Positions 8,039-55,362 are shown, counted from the whole stretch's first letter. The stretch is 62,947 bases of DNA, filler included, from Neolecta irregularis DAH-3 (GCA_001929475.1; 8 parts of 8 records of this genome joined end to end with filler, not necessarily neighbours in it); one strand, 5' to 3'. Made by a program: numbers and translations. The notes: generated from the sequence alone by a model not told the origin.

Positions 8039-9060
8039 ATGAACACCACTATTGATTTTTCCTCGCCGGTATTTTCTCTGCTTGCACATCCAAGAAAATC
8101 CTTGTTTCTTACTGCTACTCTCACCGGCCATGTTTCGCTTTCACAACCCTCCCTGCAAGAACCGCTGTGGACCACAAAACGTCATAGAAGACCTTGTCGC
8201 GGTCTTGCACTCGATCCCGAGGCTGCGTCATTCGCTAGCATAGGCGCAGATAAAGTGGTGAAAATCGCCGAGCTCGAAACAGGGCAAGTGATATGGAAGG
8301 ACGAAAAGACAACTCTGCATGTCCGCTGTGGAATTGTTGCTGATCGAGGTAGAAGCGAATTGAACGCGGTATGCTGGTTGAACCAGAATATCATCCTGAC
8401 TGGAGACGACGCCGGGGTTCTTCAAGTGTGGGACACAAGAACGCAAAAAGAAGCACGACAATGCCGAATCCATGACGATTATATCAGTAGCATCACACCT
8501 ATCTCCGCTGGCCACTTCATTTGCACATCGTACGTTGTTTCTCCTGGTCTTTTTAAGGATGTAGAGGTGATGCTACATTATCTCACAATTCCATCCTAAC
8601 CACTTTTACTCGTTCCGAAGACCAGGAGTCACAACTTCTTTCCTCTGTATTTTTGAATTCCCGGCTTTATTGCGGGACCGACGATGGCCTGCTACTTGTA
8701 TTTCATCAAGATCAATTCGCTGATCAAAAGGATCGAATCCCAGTCACACTGGGAGAAGATATCGATTGTCTCGCCCTCCTGGACTCTGATAGAATTGTTC
8801 TTGGAAAAAGTGATGGCGGTATTGAAATCTTCCAGGGTCAGAATAACGTAGGACATATTGGACAGTGTGAGGAGAGCATCTCATGTGTCAGCGTCTTGCA
8901 AGATGGAAGAGTAATCACAGGTGCTGGATCTCAAGTTCAAATCTGGAATATCGATGAAGACTTGGGGAATCCGCCCAGAAGAAAGAATAAAAGACAATCA
9001 AAAAATGACGAAACGCATCAAAGGATCAATAATGACCAGTTCTTTGCGGATATGGACTAA
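8039..9060 (+). CDS. JIP5: WD40-repeat protein JIP5/WDR55
   Basis: RHRRPCRGL, TGDDAGVLQVWDTR, HDDYIS, SEDQE and C-terminal FFADMD. Confidence 0.85.
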
Positions 9061-9117
9061 TTATAGTCGTATTCATTCGGTTGGTATCTCCATAGTGTAA
9101 AATGAAAGGTAAGTAAA

Positions 9118-10591
9118 CTAAAGACTCGTTTTGTTGGCTATCAGTGCTGCGATATTTCGACCCATAAGCGCAGAAGTCTCCATCGTACTAATGAATCCTT
9201 CCATACCGTTAATCCACCACAACCCCTTCTCCACCTCAATTTTTCCAAAATCGGAACGAGGTCTCAACTTTGGATATGCTTCCCATTTATGCTGGTAAAT
9301 CCATGTAATCTCTCCGGAAAATAGTTCGTCAAGTCGGACGTCAGTCACTTCCTCTAGCGAAAAGATTTTCCAGACCAACTCGTCTAGGTAGGATTGAACC
9401 ACGGACAGAGAATTAAACCATGGGGTCGAAGAAGATGTAGTAGTGAGGATGAAGTTGGGTGGCGATTTACCAAACGTGGAGGTATTAAGTGAGTAGCGGG
9501 TACTTACTAACGTAACATATAATTCAACATACTCGATTTCCGGGAACTCGATATTCGCAGGAAGTGAAAGTCTGCTTTGTTTCTGTCTCGGTCAACTCTC
9601 TTTTCTGAAAATCTGCCTACGATAGGCGTGGCGATGACAACATGGTCATATAGTTCGCCATCAACACTCCACTTATCTCCCTCTTTCTCAACTTTCATAA
9701 CTTCGGTCTCCAATTTTAAATTCGCCTCGGAAGCCTTGATCATATTTTCGAAGATCAATCTATTACCACCTTTTATGCTCATCACATTACTCGAAGTCAT
9801 ACAAACCATCATAGTTAAGGCCTGGAGTTGATCTAGATTTTGCGCATAGTTGCATCTGGTGGATGCTTGAATTATATCATGGCTAAACTTGCCGCTCACT
9901 CCCAGATCGGAAAGATATTTATTTGCCAAAACTGAAGTCTGGGAATCAAGCGCCAGAAATTTTGCGGCGAGAGTGAGAGAAGCAAATGGTGCATCGTACA
10001 ATTTAAGGAAAGTCGAGATTACTTTCTTGACGTGGTTCTTTACGGTTATCTTTTTCGTGAGATTTGGTATACAAGGGGAATACAGGCGAAGTTCCATATT
10101 TAAGGAGCAACCTGATGGCAGTCTTCCATGAAGGCTCATGAATGTCGAGAGTAAACGAAAATTTCTGACCATCCCAACTAAATATTAAAGAAATTACGGA
10201 TACGACCCAAACATTCCGGTAATTGGGTCCAAATCGAAATCTGAAAAGGATAGATTGAACCTCTGAGTTGTTTCAACGAGGATGTGATTCTCCTGTACAA
10301 AAATACTGGCGCCTGTTATTAGCTAATTTTACGAGATAGGGAAATATCTAATTCGACTGGATAGAGAGGGTCATCATGGACATAGACCACATTGCTTCGT
10401 CCGCCAATATAATCATTTTTCTCATAGATCGTTATATCTGCCTCGGTCGCAGAAGAAAGGTAATACGAGCACGCTGCGCCTCCCGCACCCGCACCAATGA
10501 TAGCAACCTTTGGGCCAGGAGACGAGAGGAACGCTTGTTGTGTATGTTCCGCAAGGACGCAGACCGGGAAGAGGAGACTGTGAAGTTGCAT
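9118..10591 (-). CDS. Prenylcysteine oxidase/lyase, 4 introns
   Basis: Signal peptide, VAIIGAGAGG FAD motif, VELGASIF (across a non-canonical intron), RCNYAQN, FISTMETSALMGRNIA. Confidence 0.9.
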
Positions 10592-11567
10592 AGGAGAGGA
10601 GGTTTAGTATCAAGATTCGTCCAAGCTAATCATTTCTACCGTTTAAGCGAAATAAACCTCCGTAGTATGATCCTAGAATGAAGGTAGTCTCAATTGTGTC
10701 AGTGGCTTTGATTGCTAAAACTAGCCTGATTTAGCCTCTTGATTATTCTAAGATTTCTTGTAAAGTTAAAAGATCTGCATAAGATTGTTGACAATGGAGA
10801 TGGAAGTTGTGAGATAAAGAAAAGAGGGATTCACCTGAATAATTTCAATACCAAAAGCTTCTCTTTGTAATTGAAAATCGCAACATCCCAGCACCATATA
10901 ATATTCAGATACTTTTGTAATTATTAAAATAGCATATCTGTAAGATTAACCGAACATATACTTACCAATACGGTAGAGTGACTTGTGACACGCGGGCTGC
11001 AGTTGTAGAGCTTTGCAGATTTAGATGACTTGGATAAAAACGAGAAAACAGATTGTTCGATTCCTTTGCTGGATGAATAGAGCATTATTCACCGCTCCTA
11101 CAAGCAACCACCTACAGGTCTATTTATAGGAAACAGAAATAGCCGTGTCGGTTATAGAAACCTAGACTCTGACCAAAGGAAAAGCCAAACAAGAGACCCC
11201 CTATAAAATATCATCTACAATATTACTATATCATTTTCGTACCACAGGCTGAGCATATATTGCGGCATTTGGAAGATATATAAAGGCGAAAAACTTGCAT
11301 ACCTAGTCGAAGTTCACTTAGGGTGCATTCGCCAGCCACAAGATTGACCCACTTGTTGCAATTTTAGGTGGTCTTATTTGTACCTTAGGACAAGGTCTTA
11401 CAATATCTGTTGTGGCCAGCGAAATAAACTCAAAATAATCGTGGCTGAGGGAGATAGTTTTAAATCGCAAATCATACTCGAAACTGTGGGTTTCTCATCG
11501 AGCATGCCATCTGGTACGTTCAGAATTTTACGATATATACCCAACATTTCGACTTTTTCTTTTATAC

Positions 11568-13017
11568 CTATCTTCCACCATAACCACGAGCAATTCCTTC
11601 TAACCCAGCTTCCAACATACTTGGTGTGTTATCGTCATATTCAATACGTAATCCTTTCCAGGATCGCCCCTGGAGATATTCCGCAGCTGAAGACTCCTCC
11701 CCATGAATCTTTACCGTTCCGTCCCATCGTTTGATGAGTTGATCCTCCTCCTCGCTTGCATTCTCCTCGACATCAGGAATCGTTGTATCTAAAACGGACA
11801 AGAAATCAAGCTTCCACTGACCGGTCCATTCCTTTCCAAGTGCCAACAATAATTCAAAAGGTGTAATAATCGGGCGTAAATATTCCTGCATATAAATTTC
11901 CAGACTCAAAAAGAGAAAACCTTTGAATCAATAAGACTATTCTCTTCACAACTCAAATAGACGAAAATATCGATTTCGGGGAAGTTTGCTAGTTTTGGAA
12001 CGTTGGGCTTGCCGATTGCTAAAGTATAGCTCTTCTTCTTAGCTTTTTTAATCGCTTGTTGAAGGTGGGAAAGTGTTTCGAGATATTTCGATATGCCGAG
12101 TGTGCCCATTACTAGGCCGAAGGTAGTTGCAGTAGACGCAGTTTGAATCAATGCATAGCGTTTTGAGATACTAGATATAGGGAGTTTGAGAGATGATGAT
12201 TGGGGATCAAAGTGGTATATTGATAACACTTTTGATGAGGCGGAGAGAATGAGGTTGGTAAGTGATTGAGTTGAAGGACCAATATAGATTACATTAGAAG
12301 ATGAAAGGGATTCAGATGAGGAGAGGCGACGCGACGGAAGGAGATCATGGGAGCCTATTTCAATCGACGATACGACTGGCTTGAAGGATTGTTTGGAGAG
12401 AAGGGCTGAAAGAGGTCCTATATTTTTGATTAAGGGTTCTCAAAAGACACATACCTAAATGGTGTTGATATTGCACATCTGCTAATAATACAATCTGATT
12501 TTCACTATCGAGACCCTTTATTTCCTCAAGAAAGGAATCGTAATGCAATTCTCTTTTACAAAATACATAAATTACTGGTGTACGATTTGTCCTACGGCCT
12601 CAGTTGACTTTATGGAAGTCATACGGTGATAAACAAGCTCGTCCGAAATGGATTATTACATCGGCATTGACATGTTCTGCGGCGACCTCATCGACGCAGC
12701 ATCTATCTCATCAATCACATTGAGGAAACGACGACATACTCTCCATAGCTAGTATCGCCAAGGATATATACATCGCTTTCGAGAAGTTTCCTCAGATATT
12801 CGGCAACAATGGTCGATTCGTGAAGTAGAGAGTCGGGGAACTGTAAAGCGACCTACTTCATCAGCAATAGCCGTTGGGTTATTTGTGCCTTCTTGTAGCA
12901 TTTTTCTTTGACTTTTGCTATGATCCGCGGATATTCATATACACTGCAAAAGTCTTTTGTTCGTATCCGAGAAGAATGTGTATCGAGCTCTACAGGCGTA
13001 GTGGAGGAAAAGTTCAT
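11568..13017 (-). CDS. DPH2: Diphthamide biosynthesis protein 2, 5 introns
   Basis: [46 protein letters not shown]...GIARGY. Confidence 0.92.
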
Positions 13018-13197
13018 GGCTGAAGTGGGATCGGAGAAATCCGGTTAGACGATTACAATAAGCCGACCAGCGGACACTAGAGCTAATATAAGTGAGAAGG
13101 TGTAAAATGGGCTGTTTTACAGGTGGCCAACTGCAGGCAGTGGTGAGGTTGGTGGATTTTATAAAACTTGCGATTTTACTGGTGTATCAGAACAGTG

Positions 13198-13759
13198 ATG
13201 CCATATAACACCACACCCCTCGCTCCACGACTGTCTTTACCAGGCCATGCACCTCCCTTATCGAACCTTCCCGTTCGCGAACCAGATGGAACGACCAAAT
13301 TGCCTCTAATCAGAGTTAAGCGAATAATTAAACTTGATCCGGATATCGTTGCTTGTTCCAATGCCTCGGCGTTCATCATTACCATCGCCTCTGTATTACT
13401 CTCTCCCTCGCTCACTAGCCTTCTTGCTGAATTCGTTTTAGGAAATGTTTATTCAGTATCTCGCGGAGCAAGCTCACATTCTCTCTAAAGTCAAACCGGG
13501 TGGTGATAGGAAGAAAACCCTGATGTACAACGATCTCGGTACCCTTTCATCAAGGGAAGAGTCCATAATTAATCTTCCCAGCAAATGCGGTATCAAAACT
13601 TGATACATTGGAATTTTTATCAGGTTTGTGGGAAGTGTTGTTCTTTAAGTTGATGCCTCTACAGATGTCATTCCTCATACGATCCCTCTCAAAAATGTCA
13701 AGCAAAAACCAAAAATTCAACAGGCTCCTAAACGAGATAAAATGGAGATTGACCCTTGA
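13198..13759 (+). CDS. DPB3: Histone-fold protein, DNA polymerase epsilon subunit C / CHRAC family
   Basis: LPLIRVKRIIKLDPDI, EMFIQYL and LEFLSDVIP across 3 GT-AG introns. Confidence 0.8.
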
Positions 13760-14296: not shown

Positions 14297-14439
14297 CGTG
14301 CTATAAATAAAACGGTGAGCTGTAATCCGATGCCCGAGACAAAAAATTAAACAAGCATGAGACTGCTTCTTCTATGCAAATGTGTATAATTCTATAATTC
14401 TATAATTCTATATTACACTATAGTTGTCTATTCAGGGGG

Positions 14440-17307: not shown

Positions 17308-17407
17308 NNNNNNNNNNNNNNNNNNNNNNNNNNNNNNNNNNNNNNNNNNNNTTAATTAATTAANNNNNNNNNNNNNNNNNNNNNNNNNNNNNNNNNNNNN
17401 NNNNNNN
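17308..17407. other. Assembly gap linker (N44-TTAATTAATTAA-N44); same type at 40167, 46122, 57009, 58638, 60410, 61681
   Basis: Seven 100-nt linkers of the same design, with stop codons in all six frames. Confidence 0.98.
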
Positions 17408-20073: not shown

Positions 20074-20111
<38 letters not shown>

Positions 20112-21273: not shown

Positions 21274-24070
21274 TCATGTCTTGTTCCCCCCCGCTGAAGG
21301 ATTCTGTCCCGCCCATGCTCCAAACCATCGTCCCGCTTTTGTGAATCCGTTTTCGGCACAGGGAAGACTAGACATACTTGCCGACGAGGAATGTCCCGTA
21401 ATACCCATTTGTTTCCTTAGCTTATCATAACAGTTGCGCACTTCAGCTGCATCTTGCTTTGCAATTGCCTCTGCAGTTTTAGCGTTGACTAGATCAAGTT
21501 TAAACGAATCGCATGATGCGCAAGCTTCTTCCACCACCTGCGAAGACCGGTTCGAGTATATACTCGCAGGTCGTGTCTTCAAAGATGACCGGCGAGATAG
21601 TTTCAATTCCCGTAATCCACGATCAACGTTTTCAGGACCAAGAAAGGGTTCAGTTGTAGTTGGCTCATGTTGACGATTCTTATGTTGTACTCTCAGCGCA
21701 ATTAAATCTTGCTGCGCTTTTTGACGATCTTTTTGTTCGGATAAATACCGTTGTTTGATTTCGTTAGCATGCTCTTTTAGTCGGGAAACTTCGTGCATCA
21801 TTTCTTTGTTGGTCTTATCCAAGTCTCGATTTATCTGGCGTTCTCTCGCTAATTCTTCGTTTGCACGATTAAGTTCTTTTAGTAATGCTTGTGATGATTT
21901 GTGAGACGTCACAGATGCTGTGCCTTCGATGATTTTGGCAACTAGTTCCGCTACCAGCGAAGAAAAATCATGTTTAACGGTTGGACGGGGTGTCAAGGGC
22001 GGATCATTAGATGTCGATGCTACCTCTTCGGTTTCGTCCGTGGTAGTAGGAATATCCAGATCCTTGACAGCATCTTCCATAGAACCAATCGTCTCCGTTT
22101 CAGCATCGCACTCGATTTTTGATTCCGAGATTTTCAAAGCAAGTGCTCGAATATCTTCATTCTGCTTCCGCAGTGCTTCGATTTCTTCTTCCTTTTGAGC
22201 GTGTTCGCGTTGAAGAGAACTAAGCGCGATGACTAGATCCTCAATCTGGCGATGGAGACCCTTGCTGTTGCGATCGCCGCTCGTCATGGATGTTGTTCGT
22301 GATATAATTGTAGGCTCAGTATAATTCCCGTCTGACGAAGAGGTGGAATCCAAAGAGGCGAGAGTGGAAACAGACAGTTTTGAAGAAGTTCGTTTAGTGG
22401 GGCTTGTAGGCCCAGACACATTTGTCTGAGGAGACAAAGCGTTCGGAGTGGGGCTTTGTGGAGTAGAAAGCAGCCGCCCGAAAAACCTGGAAGCGATAGC
22501 CTGAAGATCCGTTGTCTTCCTAGTTGGGGAAGAACTACGAGACGATGAAGAATTTTCTTCATGCTCCTTAAACTTGCGCTCCAGATCAGCCAAACTTCCT
22601 CGCGTCACCACGCCGCCAAGGCCACATGCCTCATTTACAAGCGCATCATCATCACCTTCATAGACATACCATAAACCACGACCAAGCAACTGCTGAGCGA
22701 CGCCTTCAAACTCTTCCAAAACAAGAAGCCGCTCCTCATTCTTTTGCATCAAGGCAATCGCGACCCGCATTATCGTTTCAGGTGCGCCTTCCGCAAATAT
22801 CACATCATACACTCTCATCAACGTCGCAAAAGGACATGTCACGCCAAACAGGGATAAGAACCACTGACTTGCGTACATTGACGGTTCGATTCCAAGGTCG
22901 GTTAGATGTGCAGCAAGACTAGGCACATGTGCGACAAGCAGATGTGAAAACTGGTATAATCGCAATTTGAGCCCCGACAAGTTTTGCGTAAACATAGTTC
23001 GCATGTCATAACATTCCATGATTCGAACGAGTACGCAGAATGATTCTCGTTCGCCCATGTTCATGAGTAACGGCCCTACGAGGAAACCGAGTCTGTTTAT
23101 CAGCGTCTGCCGGGGAGCTTGATAGAGATTACCCTTGACAATAACCGACTTCGGCATCGTAGAGACTGTATGCCTTGAGAACACGTCCCAGTAATTTTTG
23201 CCCTTCACCGCCTTCTTCCTTGAACATTTCGACACCAGGAAATGTTCGCGATAAATCCCGGCCGATTACTCGATCGTAAGGCGATACTTCAGCCGAGAGG
23301 GTGTCGTAGAGGCCCTCTAGATGTGTGTCGCGAGCCCCAGACATCGATTGCCACACAATACCCCTATAACATCAACAATTGTCGAAGAGGGTATACCTCA
23401 ATGGAGCCGGAACTCCAGCTCTGATTTTCTTGCCCATCAAGAAGGGCAGCTTGGCAGCGGTTCTCTGATAATCGGAGACCAGGGCTCTCCAAAAGTCGAG
23501 CTATGATTGATCAGCATATGCCAAAGACAGGCGATGCCTGTGTCATAGGAGGAGGAGCGGGAAGCATTGACTGTCTGTTGGGCAGCGTATCCGGGTCTAT
23601 GATTGCGGAATGCATGAGGCTGCGCAAATACTGCAGTGACGGCGGGCGAGTTTTTGCGGTGGCAGAAAGGGAGTGTGTTGCTCTTGGATCGATTTCTAAT
23701 CGAGCATTCTCTTTTTCAAGCCGAGCTAAGAGAAATTCAGGGGACTGCTAGACGGCGGTGTAAGCAACACGGGGTGTACTGTGCGATCGGCGGATAGACA
23801 TACCTCGTCGACCAGTTCTATGGGGTCCTGCATCTTGCGCAGATGGTCCCAGTCGACAAAGGACTCGTCGCCCGCGTCTGCCGGAATACTGTCTGCACCC
23901 CTTGGAGGCGGGTTTTGGGGGGCGACGTCTAGCCCCGAGACCAGCGGATAGGCTGTCACACGGACTACGGGTGCAGGCGGCGAGTTGGGCGGGGAGAGAT
24001 CCACGGTCATCATCGTCGATCCGGTGTCGCGGGCGGTGCTGCTGGATGTTTCCTGGATCTGGCGATGCAT
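21274..24070 (-). CDS. Rab GTPase-activating TBC-domain protein (Gyp5/EVI5-like)
   Basis: IGRDLSRTFP, EVGYCQG, YASQWFLSLF and a C-terminal coiled coil. Confidence 0.9.
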
Positions 24071-24574: not shown

Positions 24575-27500
24575 ATGGCCAGCACCGCCCTCGTAGTAGA
24601 TATCTCAGACTCGGACGACTTTGTCCCCCACAGAATTGTATCTCCCGCCGCAAAATTACCATTCACTCACCAGGTTACAAACACAAAGCCCGCGAAAAAA
24701 GCAGCCCCCGCTAAAAAGACTCTTGTTAATAGCGACCTTGATGAAGACGATGACTGTTCCGTAATGGATGCACACGACCAGCCAAAACCGGTACGGTCTA
24801 CCAATATTTCGCCTGACGTCTGCAGAAAAAGAAACCCCCAACAAAACCCAAGGTAGCGAAACCAAAAGTACAAAAACCCATAAAAAACATACCCGTTTCA
24901 AATGAAGACGACAGCGGAATGTTTCAAGATCCCCAGACCGATTCATCCTTCCCAGAATCTAAACCCACCCCAAATGGGGCTCTCAAACCGATTGAAAATG
25001 AACTGGACCTTGATCATCCTGCCGCAAAGAAACCGTCTGGGTCAAAGAATGCTACTGAACAATACCAAAAGGTAAACAATATATATATCCAGCTGTGTTG
25101 ATCAACAGCTTTCCCAACTGGAGCATGTGTTAAAACGTCCCGACACTTATATCGGCAGTGTCGAATCGACTCCCATGAGCATGTGGTTATTTGATAGCGA
25201 GAGCAGCACAATGCAATTCAGGCATCTTTACTGCTCCCTGACTGTCTAATTTCCAGACAAGCTACCATCGTCCCTGGTTTCTACAAGATATTCGACGAAA
25301 TCCTGGTCAATGCAGCCGATAACAAACAGCGAGACCCTTCCATGACTCAAATTAAAGTCACCTTTGATCGCGAAAAGAATGAAATATCCGTCATGAATGA
25401 TGGAAAAGGAATCCCTGTCGAAATACATGCCGTATAAATGATTTCCCAAGACCAAGTTGACAGCACTAGAAAGAGAAAATTTACATACCCGAATTAATAT
25501 TTGGTAACCTTCTCACTTCCAGTAATTACGACGACGATCAAAAGAAAGTAACAGGAGGTCGAAACGGGTACGGAGCCAAGCTCTGTAACATTTTCAGCAC
25601 CGAATTCATCGTCGAAACCGCCAACAAAAAAAGTGGCAAAAAATACAAACAAATCTGGACCGATAATATGACTGTCAAAACGAAACCCAAGATCTCTGAA
25701 AATAAAAAGGGCGAAGAATATACCAAAATCACATTCAAGCCCGATCTTGCAAAATTTGACATGGAGGTAATGGACGATGATATTGAAGGTGTTATAAAAC
25801 GACGAGTATATGATATCGCAGGTTGCGTAAAGGGAATCAAAGTCTACCTTAACGGCACTCTTCTCAAAATCAACTCTTTCAAAAAATACATCGATTTATA
25901 TGTAAATTCTAAAACTGCCGAGGAAGGCGGTACAGAACGTAAAGTATACCACGAAATCGTAAGTGATCGATGGGAAGTTGCGGTTACTCACAGCGATGGC
26001 CAATTCAATCAAGTCAGTTTTGTAAATAGTATCGCTACAACGAGAGGTGGGACGCACGTTGACATGGTCACCGATCAAATCGTCAAAAAATTGGCTGAAA
26101 TCATCAAGAAGAAGAAAGCTCATCCTATTAAAAACTTTCAAATTAAAAATCAAATGTGGGTGTTCGTCAACTCGCTAGTTGAAAATCCCGCGTTTGATTC
26201 GCAAACAAAGGAGACCTTGACCTTGAAAAACAGTGCATTTGGATCGAAATGTGTGCTTAGCGAAGAATTCATCAAGAAGGGTATACACTCTATTTAAACA
26301 AATACTGAAATTTACAGTCTCAAAAAGTGCCATTGTCGAGAATATAATGAATTTTTCTCTAGTGCGAGCCGATAAAGAATTACAAAAATCAGATGGTTCC
26401 AAACGATCTCGTATTACCGGGATCCCGAAACTTGAAGATGCCAACAACGCCGGCACCAAAAATGCTCATAGATGTACGCTTATCTTGACTGAAGGAGATT
26501 CAGCAAAGACTTTGGCTGTAGCTGGTATGAGTGTCGTTGGGCGTGACAACTTTGGGGGTACCCTCTTCCTCTAGTTGACTTGTTAATTGCAGTTTACCCT
26601 CTCCGAGGAAAGATGTTAAATGTTCGGGATGCTTCGGCTGCTCAGGTATCTGCAAACGCAGAAATCCAAGCTATCAAACGGATTATGGGACTACAACATG
26701 CAAAAGCCTATACATCTACTGCGGAACTGCGATATGGGCATCTGATGATCATGACAGATCAGGTTTTTTATTCTTTATTTTGTTTTCTTTCTAATTCTTA
26801 GGATCACGACGGAAGTCATATTAAAGGGCTCATCATCAACTACTTCGAAAAGTTCTACCCATCGCTCCTCAAAATCCCCGATTTTTTAATAGAATTTATA
26901 ACACCAATTGTCCGGTGTACCAAAAAAACCAATAAAAAACAAACTATCGACTTCTTCACGTTACCAGAATATGAACATTGGAAGGAAGCCAATAATGGAG
27001 GTGCAGGATGGGATCAAAAGTACTTCAAAGGACTGGGAACTTCCAAAGCCGAGGACGCCAAACGATATTTCTCAGATTTAGATCGACATTTGAAGTATTT
27101 TCATGCTATGCAAGAAGGAGATCGAATACTTGTTGATCTCGCTTTCTCCAAGAAAAAAGCTGATGAACGGAAAGATTGGTTGAGAGATTTCATACCGGGA
27201 ACATATCTCGATAACAGCATGGAAAAGATTCCCATCTCCGATTTTATAAACAAAGAATTAATCCTTTTCTCAATGGCGGATAACATCCGATCAATTCCAT
27301 CGGTAGTCGATGGTCTCAAACCCGGTCAACGAAAAGTTATATACGGCCTTTTCCTCAAGAATCTTCGTGGAGAAATTAAAGTCGCTCAATTAGGTGGTTA
27401 CGTTGGTGAAAAAACTCAATACCACCATGGCGAACAAAGTTTGAATATGACGATTATTGGGCTTGCTCAATCATTTGTCGGTAGTAATAATGTCAACTTG

Positions 27501-29601
27501 TTGTTGCCAAACGGTCAATTTGGAACCCGATTGCAAGGGGGGAAAGATGCTGCTTCGGCCCGTTATATTTTCACTAATTTATCGCCTTTGGCGCGGAAAT
27601 TATACATTCAGACTGATAATCCCCTTTTAAACTGGCTTGTCGAGGAAGGTGAACAGATTGAACCAGAATGGTACATGCCTATTCTGCCGATGGTCCTAGT
27701 CAATGGATCGGAAGGTATCGGTACTGGTATGTTTATTCTACATGATAAGAAAGGTAACGAGTAGGTTGGAGTTCGTCTATTCCCAATTACAACCCCGAAG
27801 ATATCATTATCAATTTGCGACGATTAATGAATGGCGAGGAAGTCTTGCTTATGGATCCCTGGTATCGTGGGTTCCGCGGAACCATCGAGAAGAAGGACGA
27901 TAAGCAAGGAACTTATAAAGTCACCGGCACAATCCGTCAAGTTGATGATACCAATGTTGAAATTACTGAGCTTCCTGTCCGATACTGGTCACAAACCATG
28001 AAGGAATTCCTCGAAGCGGGAATTGCTGGAACGGATAAACAACCTGCTTTCATCAAAGATTACAATGATAACAATACGGATACTGCTGTTCAATTTACCG
28101 TCCGTCTTACTGAACAAGGAATGGCAGATGCGCTAAGAGAAGGACTGGAGACCAAGTTTAAGCTTACAGCGACAATTAATACCAGCAACATGGTCGCGTT
28201 TGATTCCCAAGGACGTTTAAAAAAGTACGCTAATCCAGAACAAATTCTCATTGAATTTTATCATCTTCGCTTACAGTTTTACCAGAAACGGAAGGTATGT
28301 TGGAAAGCAGTAGTTTTTCAGTGACTGATTTCGTAGGATCATCTCGCGGATGAGCTTGGTAAACAACTTGATCGTCTCTCAAATCAAGTTCGATTCATCA
28401 AGATGATTATTAGCAAAGAGCTCGTTGTTTCGAATCGAAAGAAAGCTGAGATCGTGACTGAATTGAGGGAAAGGAAATTTACCTCTTTTCCAAAGAAGAA
28501 GCAAGCTAAAATTGCTGGTGAGAATGTCGAGACGCTTGATGGGGAGGACGACGCTGTCGAAGATGGCAAGGAAGATCCTGCTAATGGATATGATTATTTG
28601 TTGGGTATGGCTATTTGGTCGTTGACCAAGGAAAAGGCAAGATTGTTTCCCGATAGTTTGCTCATTAGTAGGTGGAAAAATTGTTGAAAGACCACGAATT
28701 GAAGGAGAGTGAATTGAACGAACTTCTCAAGCTTTCCGCAAAGGATCTATGGAATATCGATCTCGATCAATTTCTTGAAGAATGGGAAGTTGCTCTAAAG
28801 GAAGATGAAATTGCTCGAACAAACGGAAAATCGATTACTTCCAATGGTTCTAAACTTGGAAGAGCCAAAAAGCCTGCAGCGGTCAAATCTAAGAAACGCC
28901 AATCATTAACCGATGATGACGCGGATGAAGATTTCCAATCGAAGAAGTTGAAGAAGGCACCTTCTGTCAAGAAGGAAGTTGGCTCGAAGAAACAGTCGAC
29001 ATTGGCATTCAAGAAAACAGATACAAAGACTGCCACAAATACAGATATCACTCCTCCCCATGTTGAGGTCCCTGTGAATAAATCGAAAGCACCTGCGAAA
29101 AGGAAGGTAGCTGTTGCTTCGTACAGCGATGAAGATATTAAACCTATTGTTTCCAAAAGGGTTCCTGCTGCTCCTACTTTATTCTCGGACGAAGATGAGC
29201 CTGTTGGTCATTCAACTATAATCAAAGGCGAATCTGATGCTGATGGGGATACGGAAAAGAAGGGTTACGCATCGAAACCTGAACCCAAGAAGATTGTACA
29301 AGCTACAATGGATGAAAGCGAAGACGAGCCAGCTGACGACGATGACGATGACTTTGGCATTGTCAGTGAAGAAGAGAAGCCTGTGATTAAAGCAAAGGCA
29401 AAAGGTGCGTCTGGAGGCCAGAAAGCCGTGCAAAAGAAACGAAAGATTGCTGTGGATTCTGACGATAGCTTGGGTCAGATTCAGCCTATTGTTGCACGGG
29501 CTCCGCGGGCGACTGCACCCAAGAAGCCTATTATTGAGACGGAGTCTGACTCTGACGAGGTTATCACGGACGAGTCTTTCGAGGATGACGACGAATATTG
29601 A
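24575..29601 (+). CDS. TOP2: DNA topoisomerase II, ~10 introns
   Basis: EHVLKRPDTYIGS, GGRNGYGAK, LTEGDSAK, PLRGK, MTDQDHDGSHI, DGLKPGQRK, ASARYIFT (catalytic Tyr), acidic C-terminal domain. Confidence 0.98.
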
Positions 29602-30615: not shown

Positions 30616-32223
30616 ATGCTCTCCAGCTTCATGAATCAGCAACAGGCAGCCGCTGCTTCATACAACCGCGGCGTTCACCACCAGCAGCAGCTCCAGTATC
30701 ACCATCCGCCGCCGGTACCGGAGTATCACCACCATTCTCGCCTACTGCGCACCCAGGCACCCCGTCTGTTGCCCGCAAACCCGCCCCCGCATCAGATGCA
30801 GCATCACTATCCGATGAGACCGAGCAGAGCCTCAATGTCGCACCCAAACCCTATACCGGCGAGATCGGCTGCAATCGCCTCGACCTCGGCCGAAGAGATC
30901 AAGTATCCGCCGCACAAGATTTCCCCCGAACTCGTCAAGGCACACAGAGTTCATCCGCAAAAGATCAAAAAGGCAAAGTACGCTACCAGTGTCGATGAAC
31001 GAGGATTCCTATCAAGTATATCCTTCTGCACGGACCGCAGCTCATCTCTAGTCTACGAGTTCCAGCTGAACGAGCATACGATCATGTGGGACTATACCAC
31101 TGGTTTCATTCACCTGACTGGGATCTGGAAGGCTCTCGGAAATTCAAAGGTCAATATCAGCTACGACTATCTACCCTAACAGCAATAGGCTGACGTAGTT
31201 CGACTCATCGATAACCACCCCGAGTTAGAGGGCGTGATTCGACGAATTCGAGGAGGATATCTCAAGATCCAAGGCAAGCCTATTCTCTTTCCCCAAAAGT
31301 GTTTGACTGACCAATTCCATAGGAACATGGTATGACCCTCAGATCTCATCCGTCTTTCTTAGAATAATCGGATGCTGATGCTGGACCGGACAACCCGCGT
31401 GCTGACCATTTGTTATAGGGTACCATACGATCTCGCTTTGTCACTCGCACAAAGAACAGCGTACAATATCCGTTATTCTCTGATCACGGTCTTTGGCCCT
31501 GGGTTTCCCGAAAGCTGTCTTGCCCCAGATGCCCCGGGATATGGAATCCTTTCACTTAGTGATCCCGAGCATAGCCCGAAACGCCGAAGACGTCGTATGC
31601 AACAAGTCACTCGAAATCCGGTTTATCAACAAGTTCAACCGCTCGAGCCTTGTTTTGACGTTGATGCGACGGAATCGATCGCACCACCCTTACCTTCGCA
31701 GATCGTGTTTGAGGAGAATAACATGGATCGCCATTTGAATTCATCATACAACAAGGGCTCAGCGGACTTGTTGGAAATGCTTCGAGCCGGAAGATGTCTT
31801 CAACAACTTAGCGTCGGCGGTACATTCAACGATTCCGAGCAAGGCGGACCCTTTGGATTCAACGGTAGACGATACCTCTGGGACGGGAAAATGGATGGTA
31901 GCGGTGGTCTTTCTGTCATCGAAGACGATTATTCCGGCGATGACGATTCAGATGGCTCTTCTGAACAACTGTCTAGACCATATAGTGGATCTATCGACGA
32001 AGAAATGCCTGGACTGATCGGCGGTGCCGAGTTTGACGATAACGAATCAAACAGCACATCAACTCAACATTCTGCCCCTCATCATACGGTCATTGATAAC
32101 TATGTGGCTCCCGATCGTCAGCGACAAGAACAATCTTCCCCGGAAATATCTACCCAAAGCAAAATTTCTACTTCACGAAAACCATTCCTTCTTGCCGGAG
32201 GAATTGACGTAATGACTTGGTAG
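30616..32223 (+). CDS. APSES/KilA-N DNA-binding transcription factor (Xbp1-like)
   Basis: IMWDYTTGFIHLTGIWKA...RRIRGGYLKIQGTWVPYDLA...FGPGFP, reconstructed over 4 introns including a 7-nt exon. Confidence 0.88.
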
Positions 32224-37380: not shown

Positions 37381-38779
37381 CTACTCTAGCTCTGCAAGCC
37401 TGTCCATCTCAAAGTTGCATTCCTCTTGCCAGTTATTGGGTATCATTTTCTTCACGGCATCCCCAAAAGCCTTCATGGTACATAAGCTTTCATCTCCTTC
37501 GTAGTGATTCACCGTCTCCGCACAAGCAGGAAGTTTGAGAGCTTTATCATTATATCGCAATCTAACGTACTTTTGAGGCTTTGAAAACCAACTGTTAGAA
37601 GATTTGGCCGAAGTGAATGTTTCGATAGCAATATGGCTAGTATAAAAGGGCCAAGCCCCATCAAAACAATCGAGAGAGGCCAAAATTGCGGCGATGGTTG
37701 TATCATGGCTTGCGTATAAAGCCACTTTTGTAGTATTGTTTTTATCGGTCATGCGAGTATATATATCTCCAAGGAATCTTCCAACGCCAAGTCGTCGATA
37801 TTCATTGCTTTGTTCATAACCGTCAAACCATTCTGATACTGCGGATTTTTCAAGAATTTGATAAACTTCGGGATCAAAAAGAGCAGATGGAAGTGGTATT
37901 CCATTTCCGAGAGCAGCGTTGATAGTATCGAGGACTCCACTAACTCGGGGCGAACCATTCACTGTTATACCATTGGATAGGAGGTGTCTGAGTTTTGGCG
38001 TAACTTTCTCCTTCAGAATTGGGTCCCATTTTGTGGCAGCCTTTTGTGAGAATTGATAAGCTAAGGCAGCGAGACGTTTGCAGTGATGTTCGTTTGGGTA
38101 GAGATTTTCCTCGGTGACATTCCGAGTATGCGCTTTAGGTTTAAACAAAGACGACCGGTGAGCTGGAGGATAGAGTCCAGCAAAAACATGTTGAAGAGTT
38201 TCCCACGTTCGAGACATGTTTGTAGTCCTGATGATGAGTTTGTAGCTGACAAAGACTTCTACCGAAGATAGACTTGAGAGTCGGATGTAATATCCTCTGG
38301 AAGATAGGCAAGTCGATTAACGTAAAGATTTCTTAACCGCTCCCCTAGAGCAAGCGTAGACTCGCGTCCACGATCTGTCAGTTCTCCGAGTAAACTGCAA
38401 TGTCGGCTCGGGAGAGTTAACGGGGGAAGGATACCATATTCCTTTTTGATCTAAACTGACAGGATCCCCATTTATTCCTGCTGATTCTACGAGTCGAGAA
38501 TATTCAACAGAATCCGAATGGTTTCGAGACAATCTGACGATAGAGCGAAATCGTTCGGCAGTTTGACATAAAGGCCAATGTTCTGGGACGACATTCTTCA
38601 ATCGAGCGCGTACTGGTGTCCGTTCTCCTATGAGGTACATATCAGACGTTGTTTGACGGGGAATAAGTTGGCTTACCATGGCGGAATATAACTTGCAGAT
38701 ATGTAAGCTTGAGTTCTTTTGGATATAATTCAGCAAGCTGTTTCTCGCTATACGGGGTGACAGGCGGTAAGGAACTCAT
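37381..38779 (-). CDS. Histidine acid phosphatase (ACP6-like)
   Basis: RHGERTP catalytic motif (split by an intron), GELTDRG and HDTT. Confidence 0.9.
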
Positions 38780-40012: not shown

Positions 40013-40303
40013 TGGGATGATTAGTCTGCCGGCCGCCTGCCGGAAAAATCTGATCCCTGCGCCCGCCAGAGCCTCTCTGGCGGATGGGGCCTCTCAGGTC
40101 GGATTTTTATGCCTCCCGCCTTCACCAAGAGATCCAACCACCCTCCTGGAGAATGCTCTGGCAGGCNNNNNNNNNNNNNNNNNNNNNNNNNNNNNNNNNN
40201 NNNNNNNNNNTTAATTAATTAANNNNNNNNNNNNNNNNNNNNNNNNNNNNNNNNNNNNNNNNNNNNTCCTTGCGCAGTTTGAAACTTGAAGCTCAACCAC
40301 CAA

Positions 40304-41035: not shown

Positions 41036-42581
41036 ATGGGGCGCGCTAGAGTGAAAAAATTGCAACCGCGGAAGGTATTCATGCCCTTTGATACAGGTTC
41101 GATTCAACAGACAGGATCAGTATGAAGTCGAGACGATTTTAGACGACAGGCCAGATCCTAACAAACCTGTATCTAAATCTCGAGGCGCATATCTAACTGC
41201 TGATTCTACATTTAGGGATCTCTACAATATCTGGTTAAATGGAAAGGATTTGATAACCCTGCGGAAGACACGTGGGAACCAGCAACAAACTTGTTCAATT
41301 GCAAAGAGGTTCTCGAGAAATGGAACATGAAGAAAAAAAGGAGCCTGAATAAAGCTACATCATCAAAAGCAAAGCGAAGATCCCTCAGTAAAGTGACAAA
41401 CAGCCAAGTAAGTTTACATGGGTTTCTCTTGTTTATATTTTGAAAGCAAGAATCTCCGATGCCAGAAAAAATTGCGAAATCTCCGACGTCTATTGAATCT
41501 ACTGTTTCATTCGTATCTGTATGTGATGTGATACATCATTTTTTACTTACAATGTTGGCGGAGGAAGACCTAATGGGAAATTCTAATGAATCATTTATTG
41601 TGAGACATTTTGTTTTAATTACACTTACAACTCCAGAAATCCGAGAGTGTTTGCGAGGATGAAACCAGCGAGAAGAAAGCGGTTTCTCGAAAGCAGTTTT
41701 TGGGTCGGTTATACGAAATACCTGGAGCGGCTATCAGTTTTTGCAATGACGTTGATGATGAGCCATGTCCTCCTGGGGAGTTTGAGTTCATCAATGGGTA
41801 CAGATATAGTCCGAATGTCAAAGTCCCGTCGCCTGAGAGCATGTTTGGTTGTGAGGGTTGTCATATATCGGGCTGCCATTTGAAGAAACCGCAATCATGT
41901 TCCTGTCTTGACGATCTTGATGATAAACACCGAAAATTTGCCTACAACAAGGACAGGAAGGTCATCATCCCTCCGCGACATCTGATCATCGAATGTAACA
42001 GATACTGTAGCTGCGGTCCTGACTGTGCAACACGAGTGGTTCAACGGGGCCGTCTCATACCCTTGGAGATATTTAAAACACCAAAGAAAGGTTGGGGTAT
42101 GTCTCCTTGTGGCATCATAAATTGAGGTCAAGCTGTAAGAACTCAAAGGATTATCCAGAGAGGTATGTTTATTGATGTATATCGTGGAGAAGTCATCGAT
42201 CACGAAGAAGCCGAAAGGAGGGGTTCTATTGACCATCAAGGATCAGTTTACTTGTTTGATCTAGATTTCTTCTCCAAGGGCGAAGAAACTCAAGAGTTTG
42301 GCAGCGCCTACACCATAGACGCTCGCCATTGCGGGAACGTTACTCGCTTCTTCAATCATTCATGCGATCCCAACATTGCAATTTGGCCTGTCGTAGGTCA
42401 TGAACTCGCTCGCACGGAAAGGCTCTACGAACTCGCATTTTTCGCTATTCACGATATCAAAATTGGGGAGGAACTTTGCTTTAATTATCATGGAGAGGGC
42501 AATCAGAAGAAAGAAGGCCAACGCGGTGTTATATGTCACTGCGGATCAGAGAAATGTACAGGCGAATTTTTCATATTATAA
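41036..42581 (+). CDS. clr4: Histone H3K9 methyltransferase (chromo + pre-SET + SET + post-SET)
   Basis: Chromodomain YEVETI...YLVKWKGF...TWEP; Cys-rich pre-[38 protein letters not shown]. Confidence 0.93.
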
Positions 42582-46121: not shown

Positions 46122-46686
46122 NNNNNNNNNNNNNNNNNNNNNNNNNNNNNNNNNNNNNNNNNNNNTTAATTAATTAANNNNNNNNNNNNNNNNNNNNNNN
46201 NNNNNNNNNNNNNNNNNNNNNGCCCTTGCTGCTCCTTGTGCTTGTTCCGATACTTTGGCGGTGGCGGTGGCAAGCTGGTGGGGTTGCAACATTGGGGTAA
46301 AGTCGTGTCCCACAAGTTCAAACTTATTCCGCAATGCTACAGCAAATAAAGGTGCAACTGAGGATAGAAGGGCTGTTTCTACTTCTGATGCATACTTATA
46401 TATTTGAAAGTCACACCTGGATATATGCCATGATGGTATAAATGAGGTTGGCGGAGGACGGTCACATATTTGGTGGTGAAGTTGGACGATTCCACAGCTG
46501 GTACGATTCCACAGGTGGGACAGGACATCCTACTTGCAACCTCTAGGGCACACGTGACCCTTTTTAAATTATTCAAGTATTACTAGTTAACTTCGCCTAT
46601 AAAGATTGTTGTCGCCGCTCTTGATGAGACTACTGAAACGACTTTGCACTACAATGAGGATGCTTACCCTTGAGATTGACAATGCC

Positions 46687-50137: not shown

Positions 50138-51898
50138 TTGACGACTCTTTGGAGAAAAATGAATAAAAGACCTCCTTGAATCTGTCAAAGCGATTTGGGT
50201 TGTTTCCAGGTTGACATGATCATAGCTTTGGGTCAATAAATAGCATATGCATCTAAGAAGGATTAACTTGATGAAACGCTTAAGCGTTAGGCATTTCTTG
50301 AATGGCCGACCAGTGCTCGGAGATGTGCCAACAATTAGGGATCGTTTCAGCTTGACCGGCGTTTTACTCCGGTACTTGCTCTGTCAGTTAAGATCTACTC
50401 TCTGTTTCTACATATTTTACATTTTCAGGCGTTCAGGGGTTTCAGGGATGGATAGGCGCCCCATGCCATGTGCTTGTTATAGACCCTACTTATCTGAACC
50501 TTGCTTTTCTGATTTTTTAATTCTTGTCGATCATTTCATGTTCGTGAAATTGAAAGAATATTTTGCTCTCATGAAGACTTTCTTTGCATTAAACCTCATG
50601 GTGCCGTTGGCAAGCTAATTTCTAAGATTCTCGACTTGGTATAAGGCACCAGGTATTTTTTGTAATGTCAAAGTCAATTACCAGCCTAGTGCCTTTTAAC
50701 ACCTTGGGATTCGCCGATCAACAAAGCTGGTCGCCTCCAAATTTTCATTCATATCCGCAAAAATGCCCTCAGAGATCAATCTTCACGCCCATATCCGTCG
50801 AACATTTAGACGTTTTTCTGACCTAATGGTTCAATTTGCTACACCGTCTTTCTATACGACCAGTAAATGGATAGGAGATATTTTTATAAGTTATCAAGAA
50901 CCTGTCGTAAAGAAATGCTAAACTGGGGATTTTCGCCTAATACGACACTATCGGGACCCCTCATTCAAGCTCCCTTCTCCCCTCACTCACCACGATTTTT
51001 ATAATCACCAACTTCACTTACAAATCACTATCCTATTTATTTCTGACACGGTTCTGTTTTTAACGTCGGTTCTCTGTCTTCTCCAGAGTATCTTCGTACC
51101 GGGAGTATGGGACGTGCTGACGAGTTACCGTATGTAAATGGGGCTTTTAGCTTCCAAAAGCCAATAAGATGTAATTTAAGAAGATTCTTATTTCAATTGA
51201 GCGCATCATCCTTCAATGCTTAAGTTAGTTTCATATATTGTGAAGAATGAGGTGAAGATTTTCCCCATTTAATCGAAAATAGCCCATCGAACGACCACAT
51301 TCTACTGGGAATAAACATCGTTGAGATAAATGGGAAAATATGTCGACGAGAGGAAAACTGGGATATCGCTACATCACTCCACATGTTCGAGTTCCCAATG
51401 ATCGCATTCGCTGTAGTTCTAATATATACAATCTTGCTCCAAACTCTAAGTTCCAAACGGCAATTACCTGGAAGTCGAGAGTTGGATAAAACACTAATGA
51501 TGATTTTCGGTACTATGATCATCTTCGTGTCCATGTTCACCATGTCCGGGACCATCCCAAGGGTGTCTCCAGTGCTGTAGTTGTAATCAGTAGAGAATCT
51601 TAAATAATGGTACCAGCACGACGGGTCCATCCTTTTTAATCCGGTAAAACATCCAGAACCACATCGATGCACCCAAAGCTGTCGCGCTGAATTTATAAAA
51701 TCTGAAGACGGCTGGACTAGCACCAGACATATCTGCGATATCAATCTAGACAAGTGAGATTCAGGTGAGTTGGCGGTGGAGATCTCATTTGGGTCAGAAT
51801 GGCCGTAAATTTGTTTCAAACTGACCTTAACCCATAAAACTCCTTTCTTGATTGAATTATTTCGTTAATCCCAGTCAAGTGTCTCGAGAGACTGAAAA

Positions 51899-53478
51899 AT
51901 GCTCGATATCCTTTCTTTTATTGCAGATAAAGGCGGAGAACCCGAGAAAATTCGGGAATCGCAACGAAGGAGAGGTGCTAGTGTTAAAATTGTGGATGAT
52001 ATTATCGAGATGTACAAGGAGTGGACAAAGGGTGATAAAAGGAATGCCCATATACTCAAGGCTCAGTCAAGTTTGAATTAGATGGGATTAACAAGGAAAT
52101 AAATTCTACTCAAAAGATGATTGGACAAAAACTCAAGGTAATATTCGAAAATATAGGATCTATTTGATGTCAGGGCAAAGAAGACGCCAGTGAATTATTA
52201 AAAAGAAAAGAAGAACTGCAAAAGAAGAAAAAAGACCAAGAACTTGTTGAAAGCGCTAAAGAAGCTGCAATGAAGCAGAAAGTTGCAGGTATCGGAAATA
52301 TTGTTCATAATTCGGTTCCAGTAAGCATGGATGAGGAAAGTTTTTCCCAAACACACCAAAGGGTAATTAGTAGGCCAATAACGAGACTATCCGAACATGG
52401 GCCCCCGAAGGTGTCGTCGTTGAGAAAAAAGACTGTCTATCGCATCATGAAGTACTAACTCGAATTGACGGATACGATCCCGAACGAGGTGTTAAAGTCG
52501 TAGGACATCGAGGATATTTCCTGAAACAATATGGTGTTTTCTTGAATCAAGCACTGATCAATTATGCTTTGAACTTCTTGAGCGATCGTGGTTACACGGC
52601 TCTTCAGACACCCCAGATGATGAACAAAGACGTCATGGCCAAAACCGCTCAACTCGAACAATTTGACGAGGAACTGTACAAAGTTATTGACGGATCAGAG
52701 GAGAAATATCTTATTGCTACTTCAGAGCAACCCATCTCTGCCTTTCATGCCGAAGAATGGTTTGACAATCCAGCCGAGCAGTTACCTGTAAAGTAGATTC
52801 ATCTTAGATGGTGAATGCTGAATACAAGATACGCTGGATTCTCTTCATGTTACCGAAGGGAGGCTGGTAGTCATGGGAAAGATGCCTGGGGTATATTCAG
52901 AGTCCACTCATTTGAAAAGGTAACTTCTTCGGATCTTTTGTCGATCGTGATCAAATAGGTCGAACAATTCCTTATCACGGCTCCAGAGAAATCATGGCCA
53001 GCGTTCGATGATATGATGAAAAACTCGGAAGATTTTTACCAGTCTCTTGGTCTACCATATCGAGTGGTCTCTATTGTGTCCGGCGCCTTGAATAACGCTG
53101 CGGCAAAGAAATATGATCTCGAAGCATGGTTCCCCTTTCAAGGCGAGTACAAGGAGCTTGTTAGCTGTTCCAACTGTACCGACTATCAATCCCGCCGGCT
53201 CGAGATTCGATATGGCGTCAAGAAAGCCGGTGAACGAGACAAGAAATACGTCCACTGTCTCAATGCTACGCTGTGCGCTACTGAACGGACATTATGTTGT
53301 ATCCTGGAAAACTATCAAACTGAAGATGTGAGTGGATTTGTTGCCTGCCACCTGTTTACAAGCATAGGGATTCAATGTTCCGAAAATTTTGCAATCGTAT
53401 ATGGGCGGTAAGAAATTTTTGCCTTTTACAAAGGAATTGCCAAAGGACTCGACTTCGAGCAAACGCGGGAAGAAGTAG
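51899..53478 (+). CDS. SES1: Cytoplasmic seryl-tRNA synthetase, 6 introns
   Basis: [60 protein letters not shown]. Confidence 0.97.
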
Positions 53479-53604
53479 AATAAATCAATTGTTTAGTTTG
53501 AGAGAATAACTAGAATATTCCTGCCGGTCTTTTGTAAATTGTATCATTACAATTCTCTTACAGACGCTAGTAAATCCTTGTTTTTACCAAACGGTTCACC
53601 CACA

Positions 53605-53959
53605 ATGATAAAATCTATAACCATTGCAAAGACGGCTGTATTACTTCTTATTGGGTTTCAGCTATATGTCGTCAAAGGACCCCAAGATGTTCCTGATGTA
53701 ATTGCAAAATTGTATCGTTGTAAGTATACGGTGTCAACTGACAGACAGGAGAGCCTTTGTTGGACCAAAGGTTATGGAAGGGAGTATATATTTACTAGTC
53801 GGTGCACATACTAGTGAAGCTGTTTACGCATTATATCGCGCGCGGTCCCATGGAATGTCTATTCAGGAATCGATCAAGTGGATGTTTTCTGTTTTAGTGT
53901 TTGCCACGTTCAGTTTATATCCACTTATTAAACAAACAAGAGGATTGAAAAGGGAATGA
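53605..53959 (+). CDS. Small membrane protein, TMEM254/DUF4499-like
   Basis: AHTSEAVYALYRA...KWMFSVLVFATFSL; one GT-AG intron. Confidence 0.6.
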
Positions 53960-54433
53960 AGAAGAGCAAGGTAACGTCTGTTTCTTGGAATGAATTATAT
54001 ATGAGCATTTGATTGTGTTTGATTTGTTATCTATTGTTCTAGTGGCGAGTTTTATTGAATTTCCAATGGAATATTGAATGTTGTATTCCGGATCGTCAGT
54101 AAATCTCTAAATAGAATGTCATGACAAGTATACATAAGATCTTGGGATGTATTTGTTTCCTCTTATAGCAACAGTGAATATGAATTGATGTGTTATTTAG
54201 TGAATGTGGGATTGCAACTATATTGTTATCTCGCTTATTAATCTCGGAAATGTATCTAATCTGACGAATACATTCCAGAATATATTCCCACTAATTAATC
54301 CTCCTGGAATTCTCTTGAAAAATCAAGACACCTTCAGTGTACAATGAAACAGACGCTTACATCCCGAATACCATTGGAAAAAAAGAGTAATTATACAAAA
54401 ACAAACCGAATTCCCAATCTATTTAAAACACAA

Positions 54434-55362
54434 TTAAATTTTAACCCGTTTAAACTCTGACGATCGTCCATTAAATCTTTTCTTTCGATCAATTTCTTCC
54501 TGCATTATTTGATCTACCGTCGACGTTATCTTCTTTTGATTTTGAACCGATTGTTTAGAAATTGTAGTTGTCCTTTTCACTGTCGAAAAGATGTTTTGTT
54601 TCTTTTTAGGGAGGGCAACGGGGAGCGTATTGGGAATCGAGTCTTGCTTTCCAGTTGTTTTCCAATCGAGTTTAATCTTTTCGTCTTGTTCACGTATTAG
54701 AACCTTTTGCCTCTCTTCATCCCCTGTCGTCGTCGTGGACTCCTCGTGACTGGCTCGTTCAATTTGTTGCGCAATCAATTTATTCTCGCGATTTTCTTCC
54801 CCTTTGTCTAATCGTTCCCTCTTTCTCACAATTTCTTTACGACGCATTGATTCAGGTGAATTATCAATCCACGACATATACCATCCTTTTTCATTTTGTT
54901 CTACTTTGCAGATTCCTTCGCGACCTAAATGTTTGACGAATTCAGTCAACGTGACCCAATGTGTTCCATTCATGTGAACATGTGATTTATGTGAAATGTA
55001 CCTGCTCTCGTTAAATTATTTTGTGGCAAGGGAGAGATACTCTTGGTAAAAGTGGTTTGCGTTGACTTTCTTTTCTCCGTGAGAGGTTCGTAGTTGTTGG
55101 AGGAAATCATGTTTAAATTGGTTAGAGTACTGTTGTATATGTTTTCGTGGGTTTTCGCCTACGATGAGCATTTGTCGCACGTGTCCTTCTGATGCTACAT
55201 GGCACCGAAACCCATTTTCGTCACGACATTGTTTTTCGCAGACTTGGCAGTACCAACGGAGTCGTTGGAGGCCTTTAGCCTTCATTTTATTGGCGAGATC
55301 TGTTGTTAGCTGGGAGAATAGGGAAGAGTGCATTTCGGTGTTCCTACAGCTGCTTTTGGCAT
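54434..55362 (-). CDS. RTS2: KIN17/Rts2 zinc-finger protein
   Basis: MPKAAVGTPKYLANKMKAKGLQRLRWYCQVCEKQCRDENGFRCH, HVHMNGTHW. Confidence 0.93.

Follow-up and report, generated by a model that had tools for sequence, protein, structure and literature searches.

Neolecta irregularis is an intron-rich, early-branching ascomycete on which phylogenomic studies, and research into how multicellularity arose in fungi, often draw. The stretch of DNA considered here (the window) comprises 62,947 nucleotides (nt) of strain DAH-3 with a G+C content of 0.40-0.52 in 5-kb bins, and all rates given below apply to this one window. Its genes include DNA topoisomerase 2 (TOP2), KIN17, an APSES gene, JIP5/WDR55 and DPH2. 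An exon of 320 residues (26802-27761) shows 100% identity to the public DNA topoisomerase 2 of Neolecta irregularis DAH-3 (P0001), and another of 193 residues (54437-55015) is likewise 100% identical to the KIN17-like protein of this strain (P0121). The subject of the analysis is a set of introns in these genes which begin with GC in place of GT and end with AG (GC-AG introns). A sequence-only reading of the window had placed six of them, and GC at the first two bases together with AG at the last two was found in all six intervals on the implied strand. Their lengths are 36 nt in JIP5, 36 nt in DPH2, 35 nt at both TOP2 sites, 49 nt in the APSES gene and 32 nt in KIN17. Five of the six (both TOP2 introns, KIN17, APSES and JIP5) are supported by homology, with no GT-AG alternative restoring the conserved protein, and in DPH2 the GC donor is probable. 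The cases are spread over 5-6 genes and 47 kb of the window.

The junctions were assessed by taking all donor and acceptor pairs, with any dinucleotide, translating the spliced peptide and scoring it against homologues. The first GC-AG intron of TOP2 (25222-25256, +, 35 nt) follows exonic cag, begins with GCATCT and ends with TCCAG. With seven homologues and all pairs scanned, the GC-AG solution reached a score of 1736 versus 1374 for the best GT-AG solution; every top solution removes exactly 35 nt, and the sole register with an AG acceptor has the GC donor. An AT-AC register gives a homology score equal to that of GC-AG, but without a U12-type donor. The second intron (28637-28671, +, 35 nt, exonic aag, GCAAGA to AGTAG) scored 576 versus 471 for the best GT-AG pair, three of the seven homologues being usable, and its removal restores WSLTKEKVEKLLKD, with a junction between WSLTKEK and VEKLLKD that matches three homologues. 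The seven other introns of TOP2 are canonical GT-AG introns of 35-42 nt. Six of them served as comparators, all on the + strand: 25072-25108 (37 nt), 25432-25469 (38 nt), 26281-26317 (37 nt), 26763-26801 (39 nt), 27727-27764 (38 nt) and 28295-28336 (42 nt). The seventh (26558-26592, +, 35 nt, donor GTACCC) is absent from the public model.

That public model, P0001 (locus 24575-29601, +), reads through the first GC-AG intron (...QAS...) and excises a false 38-nt GT-AG intron. Two stretches of residues are also missing from it, MAIWSLTKE at the position of the second GC-AG intron and VYPLR where a canonical intron lies. No Pfam match to Toprim is obtained with P0001, and this hit is lost because of the mis-splicing at the canonical intron 26558-26592. 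A metagenome scan with a TOP2 exon returned 47 loci, the closest full-length matches having 65% identity, with no Neolecta relative among them.

In KIN17 the GC-AG intron (55300-55331, -, 32 nt) runs from GCACTC, after exonic aat, to AACAG and has the branch site CTAAC. It directly follows a first exon of 10 codons starting at 55362. Scoring was based on 15 of the 25 homologues that start with MPKAE or MPRAE, and the GC-AG solution was the unique best among all pairs (5132 versus 4392 for the best GT-AG solution). The splice gives MPKAAVGTPKYLANKMKAKGLQRL, and fungal homologues begin with MPKAEVGSTKYLNNKLKSKGLQRL. The public KIN17 model P0121 (locus 54434-55362, -) has instead an artificial N-terminus, MHSS..., with an ATG that spans the exon-intron boundary, and the GC is read through.

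The APSES gene has a more complex arrangement. Its GC-AG intron (31274-31322, +, 49 nt, exonic aag, GCAAGC to CATAG, branch site CTGAC) is followed by a microexon of 7 nt, GAACATG (31323-31329, +), and this by a GT-AG intron of 89 nt (31330-31418, +, GTATGA to TTATAG). The conserved KIQGTWVP can be obtained only by this combination of GC-AG intron, microexon and GT-AG intron; QGTW is present in 10 of the 10 homologues printed, the microexon encodes G-T-W, and the sequence ACATGG occurs only once between the two conserved flanks. A further intron, GT-AG and in frame (31016-31051, +, 36 nt), yields on removal GFLSIYEFQ, identical to the protein P0242. The resulting four-intron model is collinear with P0242 from end to end, the GC-AG/microexon junction included, with 89.8% identity and 3 gaps. 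P0242 is a JGI/IMG protein of 394 amino acids called on a 1698-nt contig, and most simply it would come from a transcript of a close relative. The 48-residue APSES exon gave no matches when it was compared with solved structures.

The JIP5 intron (8317-8352, +, 36 nt) lies after exonic tct, begins with GCATGT, ends with GGTAG and carries the branch site CTGAT 9 nt from the 3' end. It is stop-free and in frame. At its position the alignment to human WDR55 (9ekp) has a gap of 12 residues, and the flanking exons correspond to contiguous stretches of Pfam PF24796 (3-93 and 99-154). A homologue search yielded one protein out of 554 candidates, and with the basidiomycete JIP5 homologue P0241 a nearly gap-free alignment is reached only after the intron has been removed. 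On the opposite strand lies a UbiA-family prenyltransferase gene (6848-8140, -), an uninterrupted open reading frame (ORF) of 431 codons (PF01040, E = 2e-53), which is intron-free amid an intron-dense region and overlaps at its 5' end with the first long JIP5 ORF (8030-8596).

The probable intron of DPH2 (12853-12888, -, 36 nt) extends from GCACAA, preceded by exonic aag, to AGTAG, with the branch site CTGAT. Its acceptor is forced because a TAG stop stands immediately before VALQFPD (TIGR00272 position 54). The upstream exon gave no NCBIfam or Pfam match and for the downstream exon no DPH2 was found among solved structures; without informative matches, therefore, homology cannot separate the GC donor from a 60-nt GT-AG alternative. 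The spacing of 14 residues from YE[IY] to VALQFPD in the DPH1/DPH2 family would favour the GC model. The GC intron was also retained by the gene finder at a penalty of -8 to -9 bits.

The signals of the GC-AG introns are best considered against those of the other introns of the window, which were taken from 60 modelled GT introns. In these, G precedes the donor (position -1) in 60% and A stands at +3 in 82%, T at +4 in 53% and G at +5 in only 32%; the information at +4, +5 and +6 amounts to 0.20, 0.04 and 0.14 bit. The donor signal is thereby reduced to (G)|G-T-A. Their length has a median of 38 nt with an interquartile range of 36-40, and a YTRAY branch site lies mostly 7-9 nt from the 3' end. 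The occurrence of AAG and GAG acceptors, noted previously, is borne out by A in 18% and G in 2% at acceptor position -3; AAG acceptors thus look rather frequent, with the reservation that some of the 60 models may be wrong. All six GC donors read GCA, an exonic AG precedes four of the six, and a strict YTRAY motif is found 6-12 nt from the 3' end in five of the six, the exception being TOP2 at 28637-28671, which has CTCAT. The sequence-only reading regarded several GC donors as poor matches to consensus, and this holds against the general GTAAGT; positions +4 to +6 follow no consensus (GCATCT, GCACAA, GCACTC), but neither do they in the GT introns here. Against the window's own GT-trained model the statement fails. 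When scored with a model trained on 59 introns, with leave-one-out for the GT set and the dinucleotide ignored, GC introns outscore GT introns (median 15.8 versus 11.4, Mann-Whitney P = 0.007). By local standards the GC introns may be compensated rather than sloppy; for GC-AG introns elsewhere, too, other signals are reported to be better than average.

Departures from GT may not be limited to C at the second position. In the seryl-tRNA synthetase (SerRS) gene a GA-AG intron candidate is located at 52336-52373 (+, 38 nt, exonic gag, GAAAGT to AGTAG). The exon ending at 52335 corresponds to residues 70-122 of solved chains and the exon from 52374 begins at residue 123 (8p1y, 6gir); 3qne agrees, with 122 followed by 124 for the second residue. 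The exons are thus contiguous at residues 122/123, so that the 38 nt between them would form a GA-AG intron. A strong GTAAGC donor stands at 52321 (+), 15 nt upstream of the GA donor and within the conserved SerRS codons VS. Its use would remove five conserved residues, VSMDE, and as a 5' splice site it may compete with the GA donor or serve as an alternative to it. An AT-AG candidate is found in the prenylcysteine lyase gene (10313-10347, -, 35 nt, exonic tag, ATATTT to AACAG, branch site CTAAT). It joins a Pfam-verified flavin adenine dinucleotide (FAD)-binding exon to ...VELGASIFVQEN, and a gene finder restricted to GT was unable to join these exons, while the AT-AG intron was retained at -8 bits. 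The downstream piece of 38 residues has no Pfam match; its motif ELGASIF is presumably that of prenylcysteine lyase. Signal scores are 16.3 for the GA candidate and 17.6 for the AT candidate. Both classes of candidates had been proposed in the earlier reading.

The number of introns against which the non-GT cases are counted comes from a gene finder of the Viterbi type, which uses 3-periodic Markov scores for coding sequence, has an explicit intron state and was trained on Pfam- or homology-verified exons. Its first versions, based on codon usage alone, fused TOP2 and the APSES gene into one model and called shadow genes, and were replaced. Between 60 (stringent setting) and 87 (lenient setting) GT-AG introns are placed in the window, a range into which the roughly 85 introns placed by hand fit. 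Later versions of the finder miss the GC introns of KIN17, APSES and JIP5 because of the tiny first exon, the microexon and the in-frame intron, respectively. The GC-AG share is accordingly 5-6 of about 66-100 introns, or approximately 6-9% (about 1 in 12), and adding GA and AT donors brings the non-GT total to about 8 in roughly 70-95 introns. An average GC-AG share of 1.3% across 61 species is given in PMC3033335, and for 130 fungi PMC7072748 reports 98.7% GT-AG and about 1.3% for all non-GT-AG combinations together. Versus an expected 1.3%, the binomial P for 5-6 GC-AG introns among 66-100 is 0.01-0.0002, in agreement with the excess of non-GT donors claimed at the outset.

A donor-class control was arranged in which all 15 non-GT pairs were admitted at an equal penalty with an intron model derived from GT introns only. 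The donors chosen at -8 bits were 65 GT, 3 GC, 1 GA and 1 AT, and those chosen at -6 bits 64 GT, 3 GC, 3 GA and 1 AT; in both settings the other 12 classes were used zero times.

It is considered, with a probability of roughly 0.7, that the GC-AG introns of the window are genuine U2-type (major-spliceosome) introns of Neolecta irregularis which occur several-fold above the usual level of about 1%. Several points weigh against this interpretation. At a lenient penalty of -4 bits all six alternative donor classes admitted in that run were used, at rates like that of GC (AT 8, TT 7, GC 7, GA 5, GG 4, CT 2), although this setting was judged uninformative. Intron-likeness alone does not discriminate either, as the numbers with a score of at least 14 are 23 for GT, 10 for GC, 11 for GA, 6 for GG, 9 for AT, 2 for CT and 10 for TT. 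The higher signal scores of the GC introns may be due in part to how the cases were noticed. The JIP5 element, in frame and stop-free, could be a genuine insertion of 12 residues. In DPH2 there are in-frame GT donors at 12912 (60-nt intron) and 12942 (90-nt intron), with signal scores of 7.4 and 7.5 versus 16.7 for the 36-nt GC intron. The denominator of 60-87 GT introns is the product of a crude gene finder, in which some genes are merged or truncated and validation was limited to TOP2. The rate is taken from one 63-kb window, which could be an outlier among the many that were scanned. The junctions are drawn from genomic sequence and homology. Finally, a mechanism involving U1, U6 or Prp8 is offered as a hypothesis only.

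The GC-AG excess probably characterises the genome as a whole and not just the window. The sequence-only reading had inferred a relaxed recognition of length-defined introns; the parts of it that stand are the excess itself, the tight intron length and the weak donor past +3. Short tight introns together with such a donor fit recognition across the intron with weak U1/U6 pairing. Under this mechanism the donor would be read via very few contacts, with few U1/U6 contacts beyond +3, and the intron would be defined as a unit by its short, fixed length in combination with its branch site and AG. With few donor contacts and a length-defined intron a change at +2 would therefore cost little, so that T-to-C at this position would be cheap and would persist, mainly where the other signals are near optimal. 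The same tolerance might extend, more rarely, to T-to-A at +2 or G-to-A at +1. In its strongest form the proposal would be that the requirement for the first two bases is relaxed genome-wide, that about 1 in 10 introns start with GC, GA or AT and are constitutively removed, that specificity comes from a fixed intron length near 38 nt and from a branch site placed 7-9 nt before the AG, and that 7-nt microexons are tolerated. This extended form is tentative and is regarded as doubtful.

Among the competing explanations, the one that survives best accepts the GC-AG introns as real and takes the window for a chance outlier, the genome-wide share being an ordinary 1-2% with nothing relaxed. Just 63 kb are covered, two of the cases fall in one gene (TOP2), and for 5 GC-AG introns among 93-100, at a base rate of 1.3-2%, the binomial P is only 0.01-0.05. 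The distribution over 5-6 genes and 47 kb, to which the GA-AG and AT-AG candidates add, speaks against it. With 8 non-GT donors P falls to at most 6e-5 at a base rate of 1.3% and to at most 1e-3 at 2%, and the very weak donor consensus is common to all 60 modelled introns. An accident of sampling is judged unlikely.

It might also be assumed that the weak donors form a functional class serving regulated retention or alternative splicing, for example a JIP5 isoform with 12 additional residues, and that no general relaxation is involved. The stop-free, in-frame JIP5 intron is compatible with this assumption, and so is the strong GTAAGC donor in SerRS, whose use would give a protein shorter by 5 residues. 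In fungi 13.3% of GC-AG introns are divisible by three and stop-free versus 9.2% of GT-AG introns, according to PMC7072748. Retention would, however, cause a frameshift in four of the six (both TOP2 introns, APSES and KIN17) and would lead to an in-frame stop in DPH2, and the GC introns outscore the GT introns on the other signals. Regulation as the general reason for these donors is accordingly rated as quite improbable.

Still less credit can be given to an artefact, in which T would have been read as C through base-calling or assembly errors, or junctions misplaced with canonical introns nearby. Apart from the GT alternatives in DPH2, some room for misplacement is left by a GC-AG candidate in a RabGAP-TBC gene (23501-23537, -, 37 nt, lenient finder run only), whose acceptor can also be paired in frame with a GT donor to give a 28-nt GT-AG intron. 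For both TOP2 introns and KIN17, nevertheless, no GT-AG solution comes within 100-360 score units, at two sites the GC is also seen in the public DAH-3 models P0001 and P0121, which translate it and lie on different contigs (22,759 and 10,787 nt), and six independent T-to-C errors exactly at +2 are implausible.

A U12-type intron has the donor [AG]TATCCTT and, 10-15 nt before its 3' end, a branch site resembling TCCTTAAC; these definitions agree with the consensus that PMC3033335 quotes. Removal of the non-GT introns by the minor (U12-type) spliceosome is hardly credible. In its favour are the AT-AC register of TOP2, with its equal homology score, and one candidate that starts with AT. Against it, the donor [AG]TATCC is missing from all 11 non-GT introns and candidates, which resemble the GT introns here in branch site and spacing, and a survey of more than 3000 genomes (PMC10639083) describes no convincing minor introns in Ascomycota, with most minor small nuclear RNAs (snRNAs) lost. 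An Rfam scan of the window, and of the window only, gave 0 matches and no snRNA.

As a separate observation, two GT-AG introns, 38395-38434 (-) and 31016-31051 (+), begin with GTATCCTT or GTATATCCTT, which resemble the U12-type donor, and their branch sites are not U12-like. The motif [AG]TATCCTT has 11 occurrences on both strands, and by a rough estimate about 4-5 would be expected by chance.

GC-AG introns are a well-known major non-canonical class, and lineages rich in them are already known. Like the U2-type GC-AG introns present in all intron-bearing eukaryotes, those in the window have the same GC and AG ends and an ordinary branch site, and share their genes with GT-AG introns. They differ in making up approximately 6-9% of the window's introns and in positions +4 to +6, which are not consensus-like; a distinct 5' profile of GC-AG introns has been described in mammals (PMC3033335). 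High GC-AG shares were reported for Aureococcus anophagefferens (39.6%), Micromonas pusilla (22.2%) and Chlorella sp. (7.7%) (Iwata and Gotoh 2011, PMC3033335); the authors linked the excess in these algae to a G+C content of 65-70% and termed its cause an enigma. As in Aureococcus, Micromonas and Chlorella, the GC-AG share in Neolecta is well above 1%, though measured here in one window. Neolecta differs from these algae, as that report presents them, in being a fungus, in its intron length of about 38 nt and in the window's G+C content of 40-52%, which is not high.

Abundant GA-AG and other non-canonical donors were reported in Oikopleura dioica and Eurytemora affinis (Frey and Pucker 2020, PMC7072748). 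The tolerance for bases other than T at +2, GA-AG included, is shared with these two species as they are described there. They are animals, however, and in the window GC is the main variant, with GA represented by one supported case. Short introns of the Paramecium type have a minimal GTA donor. For ciliates such as Paramecium introns of about 25 nt are given in PMC5014332. The tight intron length and the confinement of donor information to about the first three bases are common to both, whereas Neolecta has a median of 38 nt and a clear YTRAY motif 7-9 nt from AG. Among the papers listed for Neolecta, no report on its splice sites was found. The main text of the genome paper contains neither 'intron' nor 'splic', and that of the fungal splice-site survey (PMC7072748) does not mention Neolecta; in both cases supplementary tables may list values for the species.

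The practical consequence is that gene prediction limited to GT-AG leads to wrong proteins in Neolecta irregularis, and the mis-spliced TOP2 and KIN17 models sit in NCBI, UniRef and EukProt. If the excess were true genome-wide, GC-AG introns would be abundant in the absence of high G+C, which would uncouple such abundance from the base composition invoked for algae and would tie it to minimal donors and short, length-defined introns. If the relaxed donor were true as well, Neolecta would be the fungus with the most permissive 5' splice site known, and a natural system for the changes in U1, U6, U1C, Prp8 and Prp28 that set donor stringency.

Some further features of the window should be mentioned. 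Unverified candidates comprise two GA-AG introns (2372-2411 and 10178-10216) and two GC-AG introns (41369-41403 and 55625-55666); read-through of 2372-2411 looks coding, so this may be a false call. Seven identical N blocks, each composed of 44 N, 12 bases and 44 N, are located at 17308-17407, 40167-40266, 46122-46221, 57009-57108, 58638-58737, 60410-60509 and 61681-61780, and make the gene models in their neighbourhood unreliable. Weak similarity to a retroviral-type aspartyl protease (PF08284, E = 2e-5) is seen at 60602-61132 (-), close to where the window ends, and may be what is left of a retrotransposon.

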